From positions 31,577-95,576 of IMG/VR virus record IMGVR_UViG_3300013830_000006: 64,000 nt of DNA. One strand, 5' to 3'. Made by a program: the position numbers and the translations under genes. The notes beneath the pieces were generated by a model, which searched no databases, was not told the DNA's origin, and saw only the letters and a list, made by a program, of their open reading frames with translations. This document shows, piece by piece, positions 11,084 through 35,590 of this stretch (the stretch's first letter is position 1; every line of letters begins with the position of its first letter). This DNA is from a virus. Taxonomy: Duplodnaviria; Caudoviricetes.

Positions 11084-11428
11084 TTATTCTCCAGGAAAAG
11101 GACCACCGCTAAATACGTGGTTCTTCCCAGCAGGATCGGTAATCACAATCTCACGATTATCATACGCACTGGCAACAGTGTACTCTCCCTCAGTAAGACG
11201 TGACATAATCCGTGCACAACGCTTAAGATACTTAAGCCACATATTACTTTCACGCCATTTCTGACGACATCCAACAAAAGCGCTAAGACTGGCGTCAAAG
11301 TCTTTAAGACCACCAAAATCAAGATAATGCATGTATCCAGTATCTGCCGAATCTGCGGCATTGACAGAACGCATAGCAGACTGCCACATAGCCTCTTTAA
11401 TCAGCGGTACCCACTTAGAATGTCTCAT
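11084..11428 (-). CDS. Hypothetical protein
   Basis: 114-aa ORF with GGAGG SD. Confidence 0.6.
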   Translation of the reverse strand: MRHSKWVPLIKEAMWQSAMRSVNAADSADTGYMHYLDFGGLKDFDASLSAFVGCRQKWRESNMWLKYLKRCARIMSRLTEGEYTVASAYDNREIVITDPAGKNHVFSGGPFPGE

Positions 11429-11440
11429 TATTGGTTCCTC

Positions 11441-11776
11441 CTATTTGACTTTGGGTTTTCTATATTCTCCGGATGCGTTAGCTATGATCCTATCCATCGC
11501 ATCCTTAAACTCAGGATCATATTTGCATAATGTATGATACACTAAGTCTGAACACGAAGAAGGTATTTCTCGTATCTTCTTATTTATGAATCGTTCCCTA
11601 GCAATTTTTATAGCTCTTCTTGCATCCTCCTTATCTCTAGGTGGTTTGATAAATGCATACGATTGACCATCAAATACGCATTTCCCACGACCATATACTT
11701 CCAGAAAGTAATACGTAGCAAATATTGTTGCTACAATTGCTACCAGCATAACTAATATGCATGCTAAAATGCTCAT
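11441..11776 (-). CDS. Hypothetical membrane-anchored protein
   Basis: N-terminal hydrophobic helix; GAGG SD. Confidence 0.6.
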   Translation of the reverse strand: MSILACILVMLVAIVATIFATYYFLEVYGRGKCVFDGQSYAFIKPPRDKEDARRAIKIARERFINKKIREIPSSCSDLVYHTLCKYDPEFKDAMDRIIANASGEYRKPKVK

Positions 11777-11862
11777 GATTACCTCATAATAAAGAGACGC
11801 TACATATTGCGGTAGCGTCTCCCGTATTTACTGCTCAGATTTAAATCCACATTTTCAATACG

Positions 11863-13203
11863 TTAAATACAACCATTATTATTGTTATTGTACCAGGTTA
11901 CGTATGCATTACGATGCGTATCAAAAATATGATACATTGCATCGTTCATTAGTCTACCTAATTCCATTGATACAAGAAGTACATCCGTTTCATACATCTT
12001 GGATGAACATGTCTTCTCAATCTTTCGAATTAAGTTATACCGTTCATCAGGTGTCATCTGAGTTTCAAAACTCAAAGCTTTATCAAACTGCTTTAGTGCA
12101 CGTGCTCGCAGATAATCGATATTAGCAGTATCAATAAATTCATCGAGAGGTTTACATCTGCCTCTAAAGAATGCACCGCCAAAAGACAAATATCCTGAAT
12201 TGCAACCACCAGGAAGCACACAGGATGCACCGCATTTATCGAGCATATCATTTAACGTATCTACATAATTGTTACCATTTGCTACATCAAAACTCAGTTT
12301 GTCAATACCAACTAATCCGGCACGATTAGGAGTAACATCTAACGCAACTATCGGATTAAGAAGATACTCGGCAATAAATTTGCGAACATCATCATCGGTA
12401 TCGCAATATTCTCTAGCTTCTGAAGTTACTAAATTCTTTAAAGAATATGCTTTATCTATAATCCAAGGAGTATACCAATTACCCATAGTAACAAACCATC
12501 TGATCGCTGCTGCGATGTAGAAGATAAGTGCACTGAGCGATGGATACAATGCAGTAATCTCAGAAATATGAATAACCGGAATAAACCGCAATACAGGATT
12601 TGCTACTGGAACAAAATCAGTATAAGCACCAATCAATACAACAGGAATATCTGCTTCTTTACCGTGATCATCTTTACTCTTATCATAAAGAACCAGAGTA
12701 GAATCATGCCTAAGAGCTAACTTATGAGGATTGTATGTATCATACAGTCTTTCATAAGTATCGTGGTCCCCGTTAAATATCAGATTCATACTGTTGATGT
12801 TGTATCTAACATGGTCAGGTTCATTGACTACTCTGAAAAGTGCAGCCAGATATCTGGCCATTGCTTCATACTTAGAAAAATCTTCCGGAAAGATTCTAAT
12901 AGCTTTTATCAAAGTACCAATCTTAACAGGAGAATCTTCTTTGGTTAATTTGTTCGCAACGTTATCGGCAAAACCAGCATTGTCAATATCATCCATGCAA
13001 ACCAGTACAACAGAATGATTGTTCTCATCACTGACAATAATGTCATCATCAGTAAATGAAATTGAATGTATGGTTGTTACAGTAAGCTTATCGTTGAATC
13101 TGTGAAGATTACCGGTAAGATTAGCAACATAAGTCGGAAAATTCGGATCATAGCTTACCTCATTATCAGCTATGATAAGCTCAGAAAAGCTTTTAACATT
13201 CAT
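11863..13203 (-). CDS. Chimallin-like paralog (second ChmA-family protein)
   Basis: Collinear motif matches to 33986..35590: PHKLALRHDSTLVLY/PHAVPLRHDISLVMY, FIPVIHISEI/FVPFVHISEI, PIVALDVTPNRAGLVGID/PVFVLDVTEGRASINGIE, YETDVLLV/YRTDVVVL. Confidence 0.8.
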   Translation of the reverse strand: MNVKSFSELIIADNEVSYDPNFPTYVANLTGNLHRFNDKLTVTTIHSISFTDDDIIVSDENNHSVVLVCMDDIDNAGFADNVANKLTKEDSPVKIGTLIKAIRIFPEDFSKYEAMARYLAALFRVVNEPDHVRYNINSMNLIFNGDHDTYERLYDTYNPHKLALRHDSTLVLYDKSKDDHGKEADIPVVLIGAYTDFVPVANPVLRFIPVIHISEITALYPSLSALIFYIAAAIRWFVTMGNWYTPWIIDKAYSLKNLVTSEAREYCDTDDDVRKFIAEYLLNPIVALDVTPNRAGLVGIDKLSFDVANGNNYVDTLNDMLDKCGASCVLPGGCNSGYLSFGGAFFRGRCKPLDEFIDTANIDYLRARALKQFDKALSFETQMTPDERYNLIRKIEKTCSSKMYETDVLLVSMELGRLMNDAMYHIFDTHRNAYVTWYNNNNNGCI

Positions 13204-13265
13204 GATTTAGTCTCCTAGAAAAGGTACTATAATTTCATATAGTACCCTGATTAAATTAATATAGT

Positions 13266-15248
13266 TTACTGCTCAGATTTAAATCCTACAAATACATCAA
13301 AAGGTGATCTCTGCTTTGGACTGGTATAAGTATTGGGATCTCTGATGTAACTTGTAAGGTTCTCAAATGCCAGTTTGGTTCCTACATGTCTGTGATTCAG
13401 AATCTCGTTCATGGTTCCAAATTCAACATGATTAGGATCTTCGACCATAGGTATCTGATACTGATCATTTGCCCTGCTTGTAATTTCATACGCTTTAAGC
13501 AATGTCTCGAGATGCACAATATTCACACTGCACTTACTGTACACTATATCGGAAAATGCCTTAAGCGCTTCAGTACAAGTCTTCATGTTGCGAATACTTT
13601 TCTTTGACTTTTTATCCTCCTTATCTCCACCTCCTAAGAACGATGATACTGATGATACATAATCAATCATGTTATCGTTGACAACAATGGTCTTAAGAAT
13701 AGGGATATCTTTAGTACCGATAATAGGTATCCAGATAATTCCATTCTTGGTTTCGATATCATCCATGTGATCACGAATGTAAATAAGTAACTCTTTACTT
13801 AAGAACGGAGTCTGCTTATTCTGCACCAGATCATATTTACCTTTGACTGTATTGCCTTCTCTAAGGAATACTGAACTAAGACAAGACATCTCCTGTTCAG
13901 ATATATCCTGTCCATCTCTAATAAGTCTGACATCGCCAAGACCAGAAAAATCCTGAGCTAATATTCCAAAATACCAAGGCTTGATACGTTTGAATACATC
14001 TGGTTTCCAATGATATTCAACAGTATCGATACAATCAAAATACTGTAGTAACTCAGGGTTCATATTGTATAAAATTGAAAGTGTCTTAATCAGATGCTTA
14101 GCTGACAAGATCTTCTGAGTTACCGGTTCAACAGTAGTTATTGCTGATAATATACCGATAAGTATCTTACGGTTGATATTTGCTAATACCGAGCCTCCGC
14201 AAACTTCGCATACTCCATTTCTGAATCTGCAAGTCATAGGACTGCGCATTTCAACATTCTTGTTCAGATAGTTGACGATATTCTTTTCAGTCAGTAATAC
14301 TAACTTACCATTATCAACAATGAACTTACCGATAAAGTTCCTATAATTTCCTTCAACTCCTCTTTTCTTATCATCCCCTGTTATCAGGAAAGTTACATAC
14401 GCAGTAGAACCACAATCTCCTTTATACAAATGCGCTACACTTGATGAAAGAAGATGCTGTTTTCTGCCGAAATACTGAGAGCTCCTTACTGCGTTTCTAT
14501 TGTAGAACGCCGACTTCTTAGCCGACAATGCCTCAATAGCAAATTCCTGAATATCTCTGGTTCCATCAATCGCACTTCCTATTACCGGTTTGCGAATAAT
14601 AGAATCATCAACATCGGTACGTACGCCGAACGCATATACAGTTTGCGGTACCTGGAATTTGTTCAGCTGTCCAATTAACTGATAAGGCAGTAATGCTTCA
14701 TTCTTCAATGCGCCAGGAGTACCCATGATATTCATGATTTTCTTGCGTTCATCTTCAATGAAGTCTTCTACTTTATCAGTAGGCCAGGAATCAGTTATCG
14801 CATATTTGGTATCTAACTCTTTCTTCATAACCGGATCAGTAGCTATTTCAGCCATGTCGATTATATCGATAGTACCTACATACGAAAGCAGATTATTGAA
14901 ACACATGTTGTACAACTTCTGATACGAATTCATAATGATGTGCTTCAATCTCTTGGCGTAGTTAAAGTTGATTCCCATAATCTCGGTATAATACCGATCA
15001 AGAACCTTTACCAGCATTCCTTTATTAAGAGGGACTCGCTTGATAAAATGATCTTTCCTGATAGGAATATCAAACTCTGTCAGAATAGGAAAGCAAAATA
15101 AGTTGAAGAACGCCTGACGCTTTCCAACTTTAATCTTACCATCCGAAAGTTCCAAGATAACCTTACCAGTTAATGCATCCGGATCTTTGGCAAGGCTATC
15201 AAGGAAGTTCGGATCAAGTATTTGTTGCATGGTCCAAACTTCGTCCAT
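13266..15248 (-). CDS. Non-virion RNA polymerase beta'-like C-terminal subunit (phiKZ gp74-like)
   Basis: SQYFGRK bridge-helix region, DCGS, RSPMTC...VCEVCGG zinc site, EPVTQKILSAKH trigger-loop region. Confidence 0.88.
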   Translation of the reverse strand: MDEVWTMQQILDPNFLDSLAKDPDALTGKVILELSDGKIKVGKRQAFFNLFCFPILTEFDIPIRKDHFIKRVPLNKGMLVKVLDRYYTEIMGINFNYAKRLKHIIMNSYQKLYNMCFNNLLSYVGTIDIIDMAEIATDPVMKKELDTKYAITDSWPTDKVEDFIEDERKKIMNIMGTPGALKNEALLPYQLIGQLNKFQVPQTVYAFGVRTDVDDSIIRKPVIGSAIDGTRDIQEFAIEALSAKKSAFYNRNAVRSSQYFGRKQHLLSSSVAHLYKGDCGSTAYVTFLITGDDKKRGVEGNYRNFIGKFIVDNGKLVLLTEKNIVNYLNKNVEMRSPMTCRFRNGVCEVCGGSVLANINRKILIGILSAITTVEPVTQKILSAKHLIKTLSILYNMNPELLQYFDCIDTVEYHWKPDVFKRIKPWYFGILAQDFSGLGDVRLIRDGQDISEQEMSCLSSVFLREGNTVKGKYDLVQNKQTPFLSKELLIYIRDHMDDIETKNGIIWIPIIGTKDIPILKTIVVNDNMIDYVSSVSSFLGGGDKEDKKSKKSIRNMKTCTEALKAFSDIVYSKCSVNIVHLETLLKAYEITSRANDQYQIPMVEDPNHVEFGTMNEILNHRHVGTKLAFENLTSYIRDPNTYTSPKQRSPFDVFVGFKSEQ

Positions 15249-15250
15249 TT

Positions 15251-17365
15251 TTACTCCTCATCTTCTGGACTAACATCAACACCAAACGTACTGAAGATAT
15301 GTTTGGCAACTCCGACGATACCATTACTCTTAATCATCTCATCAACAGTCATGTTGTCAATTCTCTTAAGAGTACCTGGTTTATCATCATTGAGCAAATG
15401 CCCAGCTAAATCATTCACAGCTTCAGGACTATTCGCATATTCGCAAAGTATCTTAGCTGCCGTATTAGCTCCTGCTACCATAACCAAATTCCTAACTTCA
15501 TCTTCACCTAATCTGAATGGTGTCTGATTAATCGGATATTGTTCCATGGCAGTCTTACTACCCTTCACCGGCGTACGATACTGATTGACGTGAGAAATAC
15601 CTGAGCCATGAGCATGAGGCATTTTATACAGCATCATCCAGTATTCATACCCAATCATTACCGGCTTTTTGGTCGTTACCCATTTTACTTCTCCGTTCTC
15701 ATCATACACTCCAAAGGTAACATTAGATTTATAGATGTTATATTTCTTGATAAGTTCCATCACTTTATTCTGATCAATACCTTTCTGGAATGGTACTATA
15801 TTCAGATAAATACCATCGTTAAGACAATCGTCAATAAACTCTCGTTGCTTCTCTGGAGTATCAGTCATATGCCTGATCTTATTACCATAATTCTCATTAA
15901 CATCAGTACAATAAGAAACGATCAGATCATAAGCTTGCTGATAATCATGCGTAGTTGCAATGATATCCTTAACTCTCTGGATGATTAATTCTGATCCTCT
16001 ATTGAAGAACTGTTCATACCACTGAGCAGGATTCATTCGGTTGAATACTGAAATAGGGTCAACAACTATATCGGCTCTCAGACCGTTTTCATCAACCGGC
16101 ATCATCTCATCAGGCATAACTATAGAAACCACTCCCTTATTTCCATAGCGTCCTGCAAGCTTATAACCGCACTGCAACTCCCTATCGTACATATAAGTTA
16201 TGGTCAGACTTATATACTCAACTACTTCCTTTTTAATTCTCGGCTTTACCTTTCTCCTACCTCCACCAGGAACATCTTCCAGAGGCTGATTATCAACTCT
16301 CAACCGATTATACGCTGCAGCTATCAAACCATTAAAATCAAACGTTAATGCCTTAGCACCAAAATGATGTTTAATGTCCTGATAAGTGTCATATATCTGT
16401 CTATAATACTTATCAAGCTGATCTCTGTACTTTTCGCACTGCGCGAATATAGCCTGAGACTGATAAACTGCTGAGTTAATAACTACATCAACATCTACTA
16501 TCTTAGCTCCTCTTGGCGCATAATACACTGCGTCATGCAAAGGCTGAACTATAGATAAGTTTTCAGCTGCCGTATCATAAATAAACGATTCAGCAGTAGG
16601 TCTTCTTAATGCACAGATGATACCATCGTCATTAACATATTCTCCTACATCAGGGAAGAATTTATATTCACCTTCTTCATTTCCATACAGATTAACTGGA
16701 ATCTGATCAATTTTGATATTGATAGTTACCTGTTCAATACCAGTTGTCCTGCATTTATTCGCTGCTGTCCTTGAGATGAGAAAAGCATCTTCTGTCACAT
16801 GCGGAAGTGACATATATGCTACTCTCAGATTAGTTCCGTAACAATACTTATTACCTTTATGACAAGGTGATGTTACCAATTTTTCTTCTTTGGGAATAAA
16901 TGTATTCTGATCGATATTACTATAGTTGATCTTTACATTAGGATACCCATATCCATCAGATCTGGCAGTAAAGTTATTTATATTGAAATAACCAAACTTC
17001 ACTTCGTTATTAGCATCTACGGTCTGATAAATTACTGTTGTCGTCGGATAATAGGTTAGAGGGTTAACACCATTATCGACATTGAACTTCAGAATGTTTC
17101 GTACAATAGTAACATCGGTATCTCTGTCAGTTGTAGATACCTCATACGAACCAATTTGTTTCTCATATCCAGTAAAGACATAAGGAAACTCACATCCTTT
17201 CAGTACCTGCCACTGAGAGATGTGATCGGAAAACATCTTGCCTCTCTGTGCTGATACATGATCAGGCATAGGATTGAGCAGCGTAGTTACACCTAACAGT
17301 CTTGGATCTGCCTTAACATTATTAAGATAAGACGACAAACTGCTGGCTGCTGATAATGTTGCCAT
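15251..17365 (-). CDS. Non-virion RNA polymerase beta-like C-terminal subunit (phiKZ gp71-73-like), uninterrupted
   Basis: EDAFLIS, GYKLAGRYGNKGVVS, NRMN and RLGEDE beta-subunit motifs. Confidence 0.92.
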   Translation of the reverse strand: MATLSAASSLSSYLNNVKADPRLLGVTTLLNPMPDHVSAQRGKMFSDHISQWQVLKGCEFPYVFTGYEKQIGSYEVSTTDRDTDVTIVRNILKFNVDNGVNPLTYYPTTTVIYQTVDANNEVKFGYFNINNFTARSDGYGYPNVKINYSNIDQNTFIPKEEKLVTSPCHKGNKYCYGTNLRVAYMSLPHVTEDAFLISRTAANKCRTTGIEQVTINIKIDQIPVNLYGNEEGEYKFFPDVGEYVNDDGIICALRRPTAESFIYDTAAENLSIVQPLHDAVYYAPRGAKIVDVDVVINSAVYQSQAIFAQCEKYRDQLDKYYRQIYDTYQDIKHHFGAKALTFDFNGLIAAAYNRLRVDNQPLEDVPGGGRRKVKPRIKKEVVEYISLTITYMYDRELQCGYKLAGRYGNKGVVSIVMPDEMMPVDENGLRADIVVDPISVFNRMNPAQWYEQFFNRGSELIIQRVKDIIATTHDYQQAYDLIVSYCTDVNENYGNKIRHMTDTPEKQREFIDDCLNDGIYLNIVPFQKGIDQNKVMELIKKYNIYKSNVTFGVYDENGEVKWVTTKKPVMIGYEYWMMLYKMPHAHGSGISHVNQYRTPVKGSKTAMEQYPINQTPFRLGEDEVRNLVMVAGANTAAKILCEYANSPEAVNDLAGHLLNDDKPGTLKRIDNMTVDEMIKSNGIVGVAKHIFSTFGVDVSPEDEE

Positions 17366-31028: not shown

Positions 31029-31649
31029 TTAACCATGCAGCGATGTAGGATCCGTGAAATCCAAATGACGGGTTTTAGGATTATCCATAAACTCATCAAT
31101 GTAATCACGAGTGCTGCTGAGAGCCAGAGCCTGTTCCGGAGTAAGCTCACGGTCATCAGAATCACTCTTATATTCTACATCAATCTTATTGTCCTTGATA
31201 TCGTCTGCAGTATACCTTATCTTACCAGATTCACATGCGTTCTCAAAAGGATCGTTGATAGGCAACTCTTCAGGTTTAAACCCAAAGCCATCAATTCTCC
31301 CTTCGTTGAACATATCTCTGAGAGGTTCATAAGTAACGATTCCCATCCTCATACAAGGCGGAACACCTCTCATGAGTTCATCCATTGATGAAATCTCACG
31401 ATATTCATCGAAACACTCATAGCCAACAGCAATAGCTTTGAGTTCCTCAGCACTCTGACGAATAGGTTCAACTATATGCGTCATGTACGTCTGGTACCCT
31501 TCTCGCATAGGATCTGCTTCTGATCCAAAGTAACTACGACCACCTGTAGTACTCTCCAGATTATTAAGCAGCATTTGCTGAGAATTGCCACCCAACAAAC
31601 TTCCTAACGAGAATAGATTACTGTTGACACGTAACGTGTCAATTATCAT
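31029..31649 (-). CDS. Conserved jumbo-phage protein (phiKZ gp59-like position)
   Basis: ATG overlaps the TGA of nvRNAP exon 2 (ATGA); GGAGG SD; synteny. Confidence 0.6.
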   Translation of the reverse strand: MIIDTLRVNSNLFSLGSLLGGNSQQMLLNNLESTTGGRSYFGSEADPMREGYQTYMTHIVEPIRQSAEELKAIAVGYECFDEYREISSMDELMRGVPPCMRMGIVTYEPLRDMFNEGRIDGFGFKPEELPINDPFENACESGKIRYTADDIKDNKIDVEYKSDSDDRELTPEQALALSSTRDYIDEFMDNPKTRHLDFTDPTSLHG

Positions 31650-31854: not shown

Positions 31855-32313
31855 GTCGGGATAGATTGTTTATTCAATATTCTAATATTGAACAAACTAC
31901 CCCCCGCCAAACCGTACGTACGACTTTCGCCGTATACGGCTTTCACCGAGTATTTCTACTCGCTAGAATCCTTCTCTCCACTGTTTATTATCACAGTTTC
32001 ACAGATACTATGATTCCTCCGATTTCTCTCAAAAGAGAGACGTCCCTTACGAAATTTCGATCTTCAGTATATGAGTTCTTTTAGGTACTGCATATCCTTC
32101 AGAGCGCATCCAGATTTTTAATCCGTACTCATTTGGTAACATAGACTTATTTTAATCAAATGAGCTAGCCCCTGATGACTAATCCAGTTCGTGTTCCTTA
32201 CCATAAGAACTTCCGCATCTGAGGTCTTTCCACAAAATACATCGCTATATTCTGCTGTCCTCTTCAAATGCTTTGCATTTTTCAGCAAATCGATCGAACT
32301 CAATAAGGCATAC
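31855..32313 (-). mobile_element. ORF-less group II intron, 459 nt
   Basis: 34-nt domain V AAGCCGTATACGGCGAAAGTCGTACGTACGGTTT (31909..31942); domain VI ending CTATCCCGAC; 5' GTATG; EBS1 CTATGTT (32138..32144) complementary to the exon end AACATAG; removal restores NIDFDGD. Confidence 0.92.
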
Positions 32314-33613
32314 CTATGTTTGCCGGTGTAACTATACTTGCATTAATCTCAAGAGTTTCATCTGCTGGATTAGTCTTGAAATTTCTAACATATAGCAACA
32401 TCATTGATCCATAATTTAACGTAGGGTTACGCCCCAGCATTATGGGTATTTTACCTTTAGGTGTTTCATTAATATAATCTCTAAGACACTTCTCAACCAA
32501 TGGATCATATTTCGTTAATGCACTATAGAAAATATTAACTGCTTCATCAACTGTCTTTCCATATCTTTTAACCAGAAAATTCAGGATAATTAACTTAAGA
32601 CAATTTACAATTATACACCATGGGAGCACTATCTCATCCATAGGCATAGCTGAGGTATGTGGGCGAACAACAGTTCTGAATCCATAATGAATTCTTGAAC
32701 CGAATACATGTTTTCTTAATATACCTTTCTTGCCATTAAGTTTAACCTTAACCAAATTATCGTAATAATTCAATATTGTCTGATAAATCTTAAACAAAGC
32801 CTTATCTACGTGAAGATTTCTCTTTCCGCTTTTAACCTGAAATGCTATCGCAGATAAATTAATTACCGCTTCAAGTACTGCTGAAGCAGTTCTATCACTA
32901 TACTTTAACGTTGCTCCATTATCAGTCATCGGATGCAGTGAATTGTGCAATATCGGTAACTTACTGCAAAACATACATTGCCGATATTTCTGACAAAATT
33001 TCACTACATCATCAACTGCTGCTTTAGTAGCTGTAGGCGTATACTTATTAAGCCACACATCCAGATAATAATCAGCATTTTCATAAAACGCTTTAAATCC
33101 TCTGCCTACTATGTATCGCATGAAATCTTCTGGAAGACCTACCTTATAATCCTTATCTTTTTCAAGTTCAGGATTAAGAACGAAATCCAGTAACGATACT
33201 TCTTTCTTGAGAATTCTTATCGTTGTAAATTTCTTCAGTATTGTATACCAGATAGGATGAAGAACTGGTCCCATTTCATCCGGTATGGAGATCCATGCTA
33301 CATGTTCCAACCTCTCAATAAACAGTGATGAGCACTTCGTTCCGCAATCAGGACATACTGCTCCCATTTTGGATACGCCGTGTGTCTTACCGCACTCACA
33401 GGTAGGTACAAAACCCAAGTCACCATCAGTATTACTGATAATAGCTTTATTTGTATCCTCGGTTAAGTTCTTCCCTACTAACGAGCCGTTGTTAATCACC
33501 TTGGCCGTAGCCGAATTTGAATACAACGAATCCAGATCAATCAACTTAGGATTATGTACTAAATCCACATTTTCTTGTTCTGGAGTTATATTCAAAATGT
33601 TTTTAGGATCCAT
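32314..33613 (-). CDS. nvRNAP beta'-like N-terminal subunit (phiKZ gp55-like), exon 1; spliced product 502 aa
   Basis: CECG...CPDC zinc ribbon, GKKGILRKHVFGSR, LGRNPTL; ends AAC ATA G just before the catalytic motif. Confidence 0.9.
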
Positions 33614-33985: not shown

Positions 33986-35590
33986 TTAATGGAAGAATGC
34001 AGTAAACGGTGTGTAGTCATTACCGTATACAGCACCACCATTAACCCTTGCAGAATACTGTCCATAATCTGCAAGATCGTCAAACGTAACGAATTCGCTG
34101 AAGGATTTGTTAAAGTTGAGATCCGTAAGATTCTGAGCAATAGCTACAAGCAGATGTGCAGGAAGAACCACAACATCAGTTCTATACAGCATCTTAGTGG
34201 TAGACTCAACAGCCTTGAGCTCATTCATTCTATCCCTAAGGCTCTCCTTCTTGAACAGAAGTCCCTCGAGCTCAGCTGCCCTAGCAGGAGTCTTGGAATA
34301 CTCCATCAGGAAGTCAATAAGTGCGGTATCATAGGACTGATTACCGTGCTTAAATGTACCACGATAGAACGGCAGAGTCAGCGAGAACCTATCTGCTGTA
34401 CCGTTTATTGCATATGACACATTTGCAAACTTACTGAACGCATCATAGATTGCACTTATAGTACCATTCCTTGCATCGGTGGCGTAATACTCAATGCCAT
34501 TGATCGATGCTCGACCCTCAGTCACGTCAAGGACGAATACCGGTTTAGTAATGTAACTGATTCTGAACTGATCAAGTTCAGCCTGATTCTTGCAGAACCA
34601 ACGATTGCCTATCTTGCCCTGATTCTGCTGAGAATTATCAGGTATCAGATTACCAATGTTCTGTTTGCCATCATACCTGGCGTATTGATTCCACCAAGCA
34701 CCGCTGGCAATAAACTGACGATTAGCAAGCGCCAGGAACATCGGCATCAGAGATGCTGACGGAACAGTGGCGATGATCTCAGAAATATGAACGAACGGCA
34801 CGAACAGCGTCTCGCTCGGATTCTTACGAACAAAATCTACATACCCAGAAATTGCAACAAACGGAGTTTTCGGCTGGTAGATGTTGCTATAGTAACCCTC
34901 ATCGATCGCGTTATTATTGTTGCCGTGCTTATTCTCGCCAATGTACATGACAAGACTGATGTCATGACGCAGAGGTACAGCGTGCGGACTATACTGATTA
35001 AACACAGTCATAAAATCATCCGGATTATCGCTATAACTGAACTGTGTATTGGACAGATCAGCGGCAGTAATACCGTTTACGTCCTCAGTATTGTTCACGA
35101 CATTGAACAGTCTAATCAGATACTGGTACATCTGACTAACCAGTTCATAGTCCTCCTCCGCAACCACAATAAACTTAATTAACGTGGCCTCAGGATGAGT
35201 TCTGAGAAGTTCATTGTAAGCCGGCTTGTCGTAACGGCTGCAGGGCATTCCGTCTTCAGAAGAACTGCCATTCTCAAAAACAAGAATAACTGCATTCTTA
35301 CCACTAAGGATAGCAACACCGTACTTGGGAACAGTAAGTCTTACAAAAGTGAACTTATCCCCAAAGTCCCTGGCAAAGAACTGCTTAAGCTGCTCCGTAT
35401 ACTTCATCGGTGCAGCGGAGTCGTCAGAAATTGACGCATATCTGCCGACGATCTTAGACAGATTAGGAGCATTCTTCCCATCGTCACGACCAGCCTGGAA
35501 AGTATTGCCCTGAGGAGAGAACTGCTGCTGCTCATCAGTGAATGAAGGTCCAGTAGCTGGATCGTTCTGATCTACTCTTATTTTGGTCAT
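33986..35590 (-). CDS. chmA: Chimallin, major phage-nucleus shell protein (phiKZ gp54-like)
   Basis: Just upstream of the gp55-like gene, early promoter, Gln-rich flexible N-terminus; PLRHDI, QNIGNL and PVFVLDV resemble recalled ChmA segments; aromatic C-terminus. Confidence 0.8.
   Translation of the reverse strand: MTKIRVDQNDPATGPSFTDEQQQFSPQGNTFQAGRDDGKNAPNLSKIVGRYASISDDSAAPMKYTEQLKQFFARDFGDKFTFVRLTVPKYGVAILSGKNAVILVFENGSSSEDGMPCSRYDKPAYNELLRTHPEATLIKFIVVAEEDYELVSQMYQYLIRLFNVVNNTEDVNGITAADLSNTQFSYSDNPDDFMTVFNQYSPHAVPLRHDISLVMYIGENKHGNNNNAIDEGYYSNIYQPKTPFVAISGYVDFVRKNPSETLFVPFVHISEIIATVPSASLMPMFLALANRQFIASGAWWNQYARYDGKQNIGNLIPDNSQQNQGKIGNRWFCKNQAELDQFRISYITKPVFVLDVTEGRASINGIEYYATDARNGTISAIYDAFSKFANVSYAINGTADRFSLTLPFYRGTFKHGNQSYDTALIDFLMEYSKTPARAAELEGLLFKKESLRDRMNELKAVESTTKMLYRTDVVVLPAHLLVAIAQNLTDLNFNKSFSEFVTFDDLADYGQYSARVNGGAVYGNDYTPFTAFFH

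Follow-up and report, generated by a model that had tools for sequence, protein, structure and literature searches.

In current descriptions, one self-assembling protein, chimallin (ChmA), forms the phage nucleus, and the known minor components of its shell, ChmB, ChmC and PicA/Imp1, are unrelated to chimallin. Chimallins are represented by the proteins of the phages 201phi2-1 (gp105; PDB 7SQQ-7SQS and 8IGG), Goslar (gp189; PDB 7SQT-7SQV), PhiPA3 (gp53; PDB 8FNE) and phiKZ (gp54). In the 201phi2-1 protein, the N tail (residues 1-47) is dispensable (Laughlin 2022, PMC9365700), the N-terminal segment (NTS, residues 48-61) makes contacts within the tetramer, the core spans residues 62-581, and two C-terminal segments on flexible linkers, CTS1 (590-611) and CTS2 (622-631), make the contacts between tetramers (PMC9365700). 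Without the CTS this chimallin no longer self-assembles in vitro, yet a construct that lacks CTS1 and CTS2 is still incorporated into wild-type shells in vivo, to an extent not different from that of the full-length protein (P = 0.19); in addition, the phiKZ prohead protease naturally yields a form without arms, whose proposed effect is a looser lattice at which capsids can dock (PMC9365700). Here we analyse a stretch of 64,000 nucleotides (the window), positions 31,577 to 95,576 of the 95.6-kb IMG/VR viral record IMGVR_UViG_3300013830_000006, whose completeness was estimated at 36% by CheckV. The window carries two chimallin-family genes 20.8 kb apart, one for a full-length ChmA (P0002) and the other for a trimmed paralog (P0001) that shares the chimallin fold over about 400 residues and has no C-terminal arms:

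11863-13203, minus strand: trimmed chimallin paralog P0001, 446 aa (identified by BLASTP against P0002, AlphaFold2, Foldseek and VIA-align)
33986-35590, minus strand: full-length ChmA candidate P0002 (534 aa), comprising an N arm, a core and ~40-45 residues of C tail

It is almost certain that the 446-aa protein is a genuine chimallin-fold paralog. The two proteins gave a single collinear BLASTP alignment with 101 of 355 positions identical (28%; 128 bits, E = 1e-36), and all six motif pairs from which a first-pass annotation of this DNA had proposed a collinear paralogy lie within it. The AlphaFold2 model of P0001 computed with the family alignment had a predicted local distance difference test score (pLDDT) of 82.8 and a predicted template-modelling (TM) score of 0.86, while the prediction from the single sequence reached a pLDDT of only 38. 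When the model was searched against the PDB with Foldseek, the best nine matches were all chimallins, of Goslar, 201phi2-1 and PhiPA3 (E = 2.5e-12 to 4e-9, TM 0.61-0.67), and the next match had an E value of 0.018. VIA-align superposed it on the chimallins with Z scores of 24-26 over 396-414 residues, after which ranked GNAT-fold toxins and Mom (Z 5.5-6.5). The model shows both domains of the chimallin fold, the N-terminal domain and the GNAT-like C-terminal domain. The assignment of both proteins to the chimallin fold family, with the 446-aa one as a trimmed member, was thus borne out by BLASTP, AlphaFold2, Foldseek and VIA-align, with chimallins as the top structural matches; the fold was predicted for P0001 only, and P0002 was placed by its homology to P0001, its synteny and the family profile.

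By sequence, the kinship with described chimallins is distant. Identity between P0001 and the solved chimallins is 10-12%, and neither P0001 nor P0002 had a match in Pfam, PHROGs or PDB chains, nor did the family profile match any PDB entry. Compared with phiKZ gp54 by hhalign, the family profile gave a weak but specific match (E = 1.2e-3 over 274 collinear columns). Among 68 family members scanned singly, two reached phrog_4795, "nuclear shell protein" (best E = 1.3e-3), and this was the sole PHROG reached by any of them. A Pfam NHL match (E = 0.014, below the cut-off) and PDB sequence matches to sHIP, YscD and others (E above 0.2) were discarded as chance. PADLOC returned no match for either protein, a tblastn search with P0001, P0002, P0007 and P0059 found no match in 50,697 cultured-phage records, scans of viral contigs with P0001, an alignment (A3) and the neighbouring polymerase gene RNAP-660 found no relatives, and a word-index homolog search with P0001 recovered its own cluster only. 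An exhaustive search for the P0002 family yielded 314 representatives at 50% identity, nearly all of them 500-600 aa long. Many members come from rumen and animal-gut assemblies, Pfam is blind to them and PHROGs nearly so, and we found no paper that joins chimallin with the rumen. The analysis therefore also documents a large uncultured rumen and gut chimallin clade that is missed by the current PHROG and Pfam models.

The structural matches and the gene order together identify P0002 as the ChmA of the window's phage and P0001 as its paralog. The P0002 gene lies just upstream of a small open reading frame (ORF), which is followed by a gp55-like gene of the non-virion RNA polymerase (nvRNAP); this is the phiKZ order of gp54 then gp55, and the same order is kept in the relatives L004, L012 and L022. 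In a preprint, 631 of 650 metagenomic chimallins adjoin an RNA polymerase beta gene (10.1101/2025.02.27.640493). The canonical chmA position and the conservation expected of a core gene are found for P0002 and not for P0001, which sits directly 3' of two other nvRNAP genes. The first-pass annotation had put it there, after the nvRNAP genes and about 21 kb from chmA, in agreement with the measured distance.

32300-33613, minus strand: gp55-like nvRNAP subunit gene, PHROG 2987 (E = 1.5e-81), just downstream of the ChmA candidate
13266-15248, minus strand: nvRNAP subunit gene RNAP-660, 660 aa, PHROG 3015 (E = 1.7e-103), its 3' end duplicated by a cassette insertion
15251-17365: nvRNAP gene RNAP-704, 704 aa, PHROG 3295

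The split multisubunit RNA polymerase genes, which match PHROGs 3295, 3015 and 2987, and the SbcD-like, helicase, NAD-ligase and virion genes of the window are of phiKZ type, and on this gene content the record, from an uncultured phage of the cattle rumen, is classified as a phiKZ-like jumbo phage. Good ribosome-binding sites precede both chimallin-family genes (AGGAG for P0001 and AAGGAG for P0002).

To describe what has been trimmed, we divided P0001 into NTS-like residues 1-14, an N-terminal domain (~15-135), a GNAT-like C-terminal domain (~136-430) and a tail (431-446). Residues 1-430 of the model aligned to residues 48-579 of the 201phi2-1 chimallin, and residues 2-10 align with residues 43-51 of P0002, so that about 40 N-terminal residues, the Gln-rich arm, are missing. 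In this register the start of P0001 corresponds to that of the NTS, and only the N tail appears to be missing at this end; the NTS-like region has a pLDDT of 63-69. At the other end, the core stops at residue 430, which corresponds to about residue 579-581 of the 201phi2-1 protein, and neither CTS1 nor CTS2 is present: after the last core helix (413-430) there follow 16 disordered, Asn-rich residues, compared with 50 residues after the core in 201phi2-1 and ~40-45 in P0002. In addition, loop deletions have made the core ~25-40 residues shorter than that of P0002. Among 115 family members, the core of P0001 is the shortest (416 residues against a median of 456), its N arm the second-shortest and its C tail the third-shortest. 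Family-conserved columns are kept in 28 of 46 cases in P0001 and in 40 of 46 in P0002. The first-pass description of a protein without the Gln-rich N arm and with a shorter C tail therefore held for both ends, but the functional N segment appears to be retained and the real loss is that of CTS1 and CTS2. The resulting architecture, an NTS-like segment and a core without C-terminal arms, is that of the engineered CTS-less chimallin of PMC9365700; the CTS-less forms of 201phi2-1 and phiKZ were engineered in the laboratory or arise when a single ChmA is processed, whereas P0001 is a separate and diverged gene that appears to be maintained. It further differs from described chimallins as a second copy that lies away from the gp55-like site and is lineage-specific, with a ratio of nonsynonymous to synonymous polymorphism (pN/pS) above 1. 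What is known is the single ChmA and its fold; what is new here is a maintained arm-less chimallin gene in a cassette, and a tail-less second chimallin like P0001 was not described in the literature that we searched.

We propose, with a probability of a little under 0.4, that P0001 is a minor, non-polymerising subunit that is taken into the ChmA lattice. By analogy with the CTS deletion of 201phi2-1, a protein without the arms that link tetramers would not polymerise and would be unable to form a lattice alone. It would keep the core, with the grooves that receive the arms of neighbouring protomers, and an NTS-like N terminus; made at a modest level, it would enter the lattice of the ChmA encoded at 33986-35590, where it would accept arms and donate none. 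Each copy would then remove cross-links between tetramers locally, and such sites of low cross-linking could loosen the shell, form an edge in it or mark it. This is the simplest mechanism, because a CTS-less construct joins the shell and an arm-less form occurs naturally in phiKZ, and a two-component shell of P0001 and ChmA, as the first-pass annotation had envisaged, is reasonable but unproven. Of the roles suggested there, a lattice terminator, a decoy and a dominant-negative protein are each conceivable, as is a pore or curvature subunit, and none of the four is established.

The same retention of the core and loss of the arms would also suit a protein that is monomeric or capped by design. 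P0001 might be a soluble assembly chaperone that stays off the lattice and transiently binds the free arms of newly made ChmA, preventing polymerisation from starting too early, or else a chimallin or GNAT-like scaffold reused for an unrelated task, and we regard a function of this kind as unlikely. In uninfected cells there is no spontaneous assembly of ChmA, for which other phage factors are thought to be needed (PMC13282480), and this would leave room for a chaperone; an essential chaperone, however, would be expected in close relatives and to evolve under purifying selection, whereas P0001 is absent at the locus in L015-L017 and its pN/pS pattern is a different one. For an unrelated task, one could point to the resemblance of the C-terminal domain to GNAT toxins and Mom (Z about 6). 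AtaT, TacT and Mom of phage Mu share a GNAT-like fold with this domain, as has been published for chimallin, but the likeness is weak and confined to one domain, no acetyltransferase family was matched by sequence, and no enzyme family was matched in Pfam. A change of function would also fit the length of the branch that leads to P0001 in the phylogeny.

In that phylogeny, built by maximum likelihood, P0001 fell within the clade {P0005, (P0002, P0004)} with a Shimodaira-Hasegawa-like approximate likelihood ratio support of 98, and its nearest sequence relatives are P0004 (32% identity) and P0002 (28%). Its terminal branch measures 2.59 against ~0.5 for its siblings, being about five times longer, and it scores 171-175 bits with the family hidden Markov model (HMM), compared with 436-470 bits for canonical members. 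The placement together with the long terminal branch indicates that P0001 is a lineage-specific copy of the clade's own ChmA which has diverged very fast.

Among cultured chimalliviruses, only one copy was detectable in each (102 places in 102 records), consistent with the first-pass statement that characterised nucleus-forming phages possess one ChmA, and no paralog is mentioned by Prichard 2023. An uncultured phage represented by a 120-kb contig syntenic with the window (L022), however, carries two chimallin genes in tandem at the chmA position (L022:8181-11488). Its canonical copy is 553 aa long and scores 466 bits with full coverage of the HMM, and the short copy (P0026/P0189) has 495 aa, covers HMM positions 36-483 and is missing its N arm together with the greater part of its C tail. 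The two are 43% identical, and the branch of the short copy is ~4 times as long as that of its partner. Like P0001, it is a second, shorter and faster-evolving copy beside a canonical one; it differs in lying in tandem at the chmA locus instead of in a cassette behind polymerase genes, and it is less trimmed. Because this short copy belongs to a clade other than that of P0001, it represents a second independent origin, which speaks in favour of P0001 as a minor lattice subunit.

To characterise evolution between strains, we compared natural DNA alleles of both genes (five for P0001, three for P0002) with those of neighbouring genes. The pN/pS of P0001 ranged from 0.8 to 2.0, and the seven pairs that differed by at least ~20 nonsynonymous changes gave 1.6-2.0, while in comparisons with the window the neighbours RNAP-660, RNAP-704, orf519 and orf344 gave values of 0-0.17. 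For RNAP-660 the values were 0.00-0.04 between the window and the strains L009 and L030, and 0.26 between L009 and L030, where the neighbour pairs rest on four or fewer changes (here 2 vs 2). Nonsynonymous and synonymous differences numbered 20 and 3 in P0001 and 9 and 38 in the pooled neighbours (Fisher p = 6e-8). The ChmA gene showed a pN/pS of 0.43-0.72 against 0.04-0.14 for its neighbours (20 and 8 differences vs 10 and 27 in the pooled neighbours, Fisher p = 5e-4). These values would fit the minor-subunit mechanism if hosts or rival phages exerted a diversifying pressure on the exposed surface of P0001, as appears to be the case. They are also what a conflict would produce, in which P0001 is either a trans-acting poison that caps or corrupts the shells of co-infecting chimalliviruses, its own ChmA being tolerant, or a decoy for a host factor that recognises chimallin. 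We hold such a role to be possible but doubtful; a high pN/pS is equally expected of an exposed structural protein or of relaxed constraint, and truncated chimallins expressed in 201phi2-1 infections had no strong effect on phage propagation (PMC9365700).

A pN/pS that is statistically indistinguishable from 1 would also be expected if P0001 were a functionless duplicate drifting to loss, its insertion being recent and tolerated. In accordance with this, substitutions were spread over the whole core, beta-strands were spared only as a weak trend (7% vs 14-15%, p = 0.08), depletion of substitutions in high-pLDDT blocks was at most a trend, and residues invariant in the family have been lost. 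We nevertheless consider drift the least probable of the explanations weighed here. The 90%-identity cluster of P0001 comprises 212 variants, and the 15 listed members (of 40 read) were all 444-447 aa long; none of the five DNA alleles contained a premature stop, which ~4% of random single-base changes would make; the indels seen were in-frame, with one +CAT in the contigs and protein variants that differ by whole residues; and in 15 variants residues 1-14 were invariant and the short tail nearly so. The preserved length, the absence of stops, the in-frame indels and the invariant N terminus argue against decay, and indicate that P0001 is a maintained gene. Moreover, at ~28% identity to its parent type it still has a predicted complete fold, and similar short paralogs arose independently in another lineage. 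The pattern in P0002 is the mirror image of that at the two ends of P0001: the C tail (491-534) had no variable position among 44 in 14 variants, where ~4 changes were expected, and the Gln-rich N arm was the most variable part, varying also by indels.

The genomic setting of the P0001 gene points to its mode of arrival. It is the only gene of a 1,438-bp cassette with one copy of a perfect 22-nt direct repeat at either edge (spacing 1438 nt), and with the adjoining elements the interval reads:

13265-13286, minus strand: first copy of the direct repeat, formed by the final 22 nt of RNAP-660 with the stop codon, GGATTTAAATCTGAGCAGTAAA on the gene strand
13204-13265, minus strand: 62-nt spacer from the RNAP-660 stop to the P0001 ATG, with an 11-bp hairpin (~13221-13248), then TTTTCT and the AGGAG ribosome-binding site (~13212-13216)
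11827-11848, minus strand: second copy of the direct repeat, 14 nt past the P0001 stop; left over from the 3' end of RNAP-660, it marks the far edge of the cassette
11793-11822, minus strand: strong GC-rich hairpin GGGAGACGCTAC...GTAGCGTCTC followed by TTTATTA, terminator-like, after the cassette
11441-11776, minus strand: 111-aa ORF, hydrophobic at its N terminus and hypervariable among strains
11084-11428, minus strand: 114-aa ORF, the ancestral occupant of the interval between polymerase and helicase, 65% identical to a 123-aa ORF of L015

In the relative L015, the ortholog of the 114-aa ORF comes immediately after the polymerase gene, with no paralog between them, and the helicase is next. 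L015, L016 and L017 are the three nearest relatives found via the polymerase gene (79%, 63% and 51% identical), and no chimallin-family ORF occurs within 10 kb of that gene in any of them, an absence that concerns the locus only, as copies elsewhere in these genomes are possible. In all four strain-level contigs that span the interval, the cassette is at the same place, and no joint that skips it was seen in the RNA-library contigs; breaks of these contigs at the cassette edges were not used as a sign of an empty-site allele. In strain L009, the downstream remnant of the polymerase end is 36 nt long, and the functional end has since diverged synonymously. From these comparisons the insertion appears to be recent and lineage-specific. 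A lineage-specific, cassette-like insertion is a point in favour of the conflict role, as is the hypervariable 111-aa ORF next to it (44% identity to its L009 counterpart, compared with 95-100% for flanking genes); the absence of the paralog at the locus in the nearest relatives would suit drift too. In L011, the 111-aa ORF is N-terminally shortened to 90 aa.

The signals around the gene have been kept. The upstream hairpin folds at -14.2 kcal/mol in the window and at -16.1 kcal/mol in L009, where a compensatory A-T to G-C change preserves the pairing of the stem, and the 86-nt spacer at 11777-11862, with two hairpins, folds at -25.4 kcal/mol (ViennaRNA). The retention of the ribosome-binding site and of flanking hairpins, one with a compensatory change, is not what drift to loss would predict. 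A consensus terminator scanner did not call the upstream hairpin. L015 has a different hairpin and T-run at the same place after the polymerase gene, for which reason a terminator or processing signal after RNAP-660 seems to be conserved in function and not in sequence. In a promoter search, CTATATTAA-like motifs occurred at chance frequency and sigma-70-like sites were fewer than in shuffles.

Several studies of the bovine gut and rumen yielded metagenomes that contain the P0001 gene, and it was also found in six metatranscriptome runs belonging to three studies. RNA libraries of two studies gave assemblies with the full-length gene, in one case on a 1,474-nt contig consisting of the ORF and spacer alone; contig depths in these libraries were not used for ranking expression. 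The GC content at third codon positions (GC3) is 0.275 in P0001, which is the genome average, whereas P0002 exceeds all other ORFs of the window, 50 in total, in both GC and GC3 (the latter 0.464, z = 2.9), as would fit a very highly expressed gene. Because P0001 shows no such deviation, its level is probably modest.

Several observations weigh against P0001 as a minor lattice subunit. First, P0001 has lost 18 of the 46 family-conserved residues, including the sole invariant glycine (G359, replaced by N293), and the near-invariant G313 of the family is likewise replaced (K256); with so many conserved residues gone, the acceptor grooves may not fit the arms of ChmA. Second, the NTS role of residues 1-14 is deduced from their register and their invariance (0 of 14 variable, ~2 expected). 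Third, the confidence of the AlphaFold2 model comes largely from the family alignment. Fourth, the excess of the P0001 pN/pS over 1 lacks significance (p ~0.2), so that relaxed constraint on P0001 is possible. Fifth, the RNA-library contigs with P0001 may be DNA carry-over. In addition, the conflict reading is nearly as well supported as the minor-subunit mechanism, and the fast evolution, the cassette insertion and the tail-less homologs of bacteria shift weight towards a conflict-linked role.

These homologs were encountered in bacterial chromosomes, where two C-tail-less members of the family, P0020 (504 aa) and P0011 (502 aa), were observed; the loci are L025:8164-10960 and L023:1135-3937, and further ones are L026, L027 and L028. 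They sit among housekeeping genes (PHO4, PhoU, YbeY, PhoH, MiaB-like and CorC), and each homolog is directly preceded by a Sel1-repeat gene of ~400 aa, which is 49% identical between loci (E = 4e-138). One module adjoins AbiD, and DUF6088 and AbiEii lie close to the other. P0020 has an identical counterpart in a Gammaproteobacteria metagenome-assembled genome (UBA2810) and, with a GC content of 38.7% in a locus of 53%, is clearly foreign to its surroundings by this measure. The homolog is rare, occurring in G001 only, that is, in 1 of 98 and 1 of 401 genomes in family- and order-level searches. We found no paper on a module of Sel1 and a tail-less chimallin. The pair may be regarded as a candidate anti-chimallivirus system derived from the shell protein, and its position by abortive-infection genes would accord with a conflict role for arm-less chimallins in general; against such a role, PADLOC matched neither the homologs nor their Sel1 partners, its sole match being the neighbouring AbiD gene. 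That arm-less chimallins are a recurrent weapon over the phage nucleus, gained and quickly diversified by phages so as to disturb the shells of rivals or escape recognition, with the bacterial module as a captured defence that poisons or senses the assembling shell of an invading chimallivirus, is an unlikely extension of this idea.

A setting for conflict exists, since a single rumen metagenome (JGI Ga0326514) contained three chimallin-family phages (L018, L019 and L021), namely the window's phage (98% identity), one of the P0004 type (50%) and a third (28%), and co-infection or competition among nucleus-forming phages is therefore plausible. The recurrence of short forms, as a tandem gene in a second phage of rumen or gut and as captured copies by abortive-infection genes in bacteria, together with fast evolution and arrival in a cassette, suggests that the shell is a battlefield and not just a passive shield. 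Whether as a minor subunit or in another role, P0001 bears on how the shell lattice is opened, edged, remodelled or attacked, and as a protein that can be co-expressed with its ChmA partner it offers a practical tool with which the tuning of lattice connectivity can be tested.

Two further observations concern genes near the two loci in related contigs. At L017:7556-10032, the counterpart of the 704-aa polymerase gene was called as two ORFs of 442 and 247 aa, ~400 nt apart, which could be an intron or a split gene. In strain L013 (L013:7011-8176), the 388-aa gene upstream of chmA was called as 117 and 270 aa, possibly owing to a frameshift.

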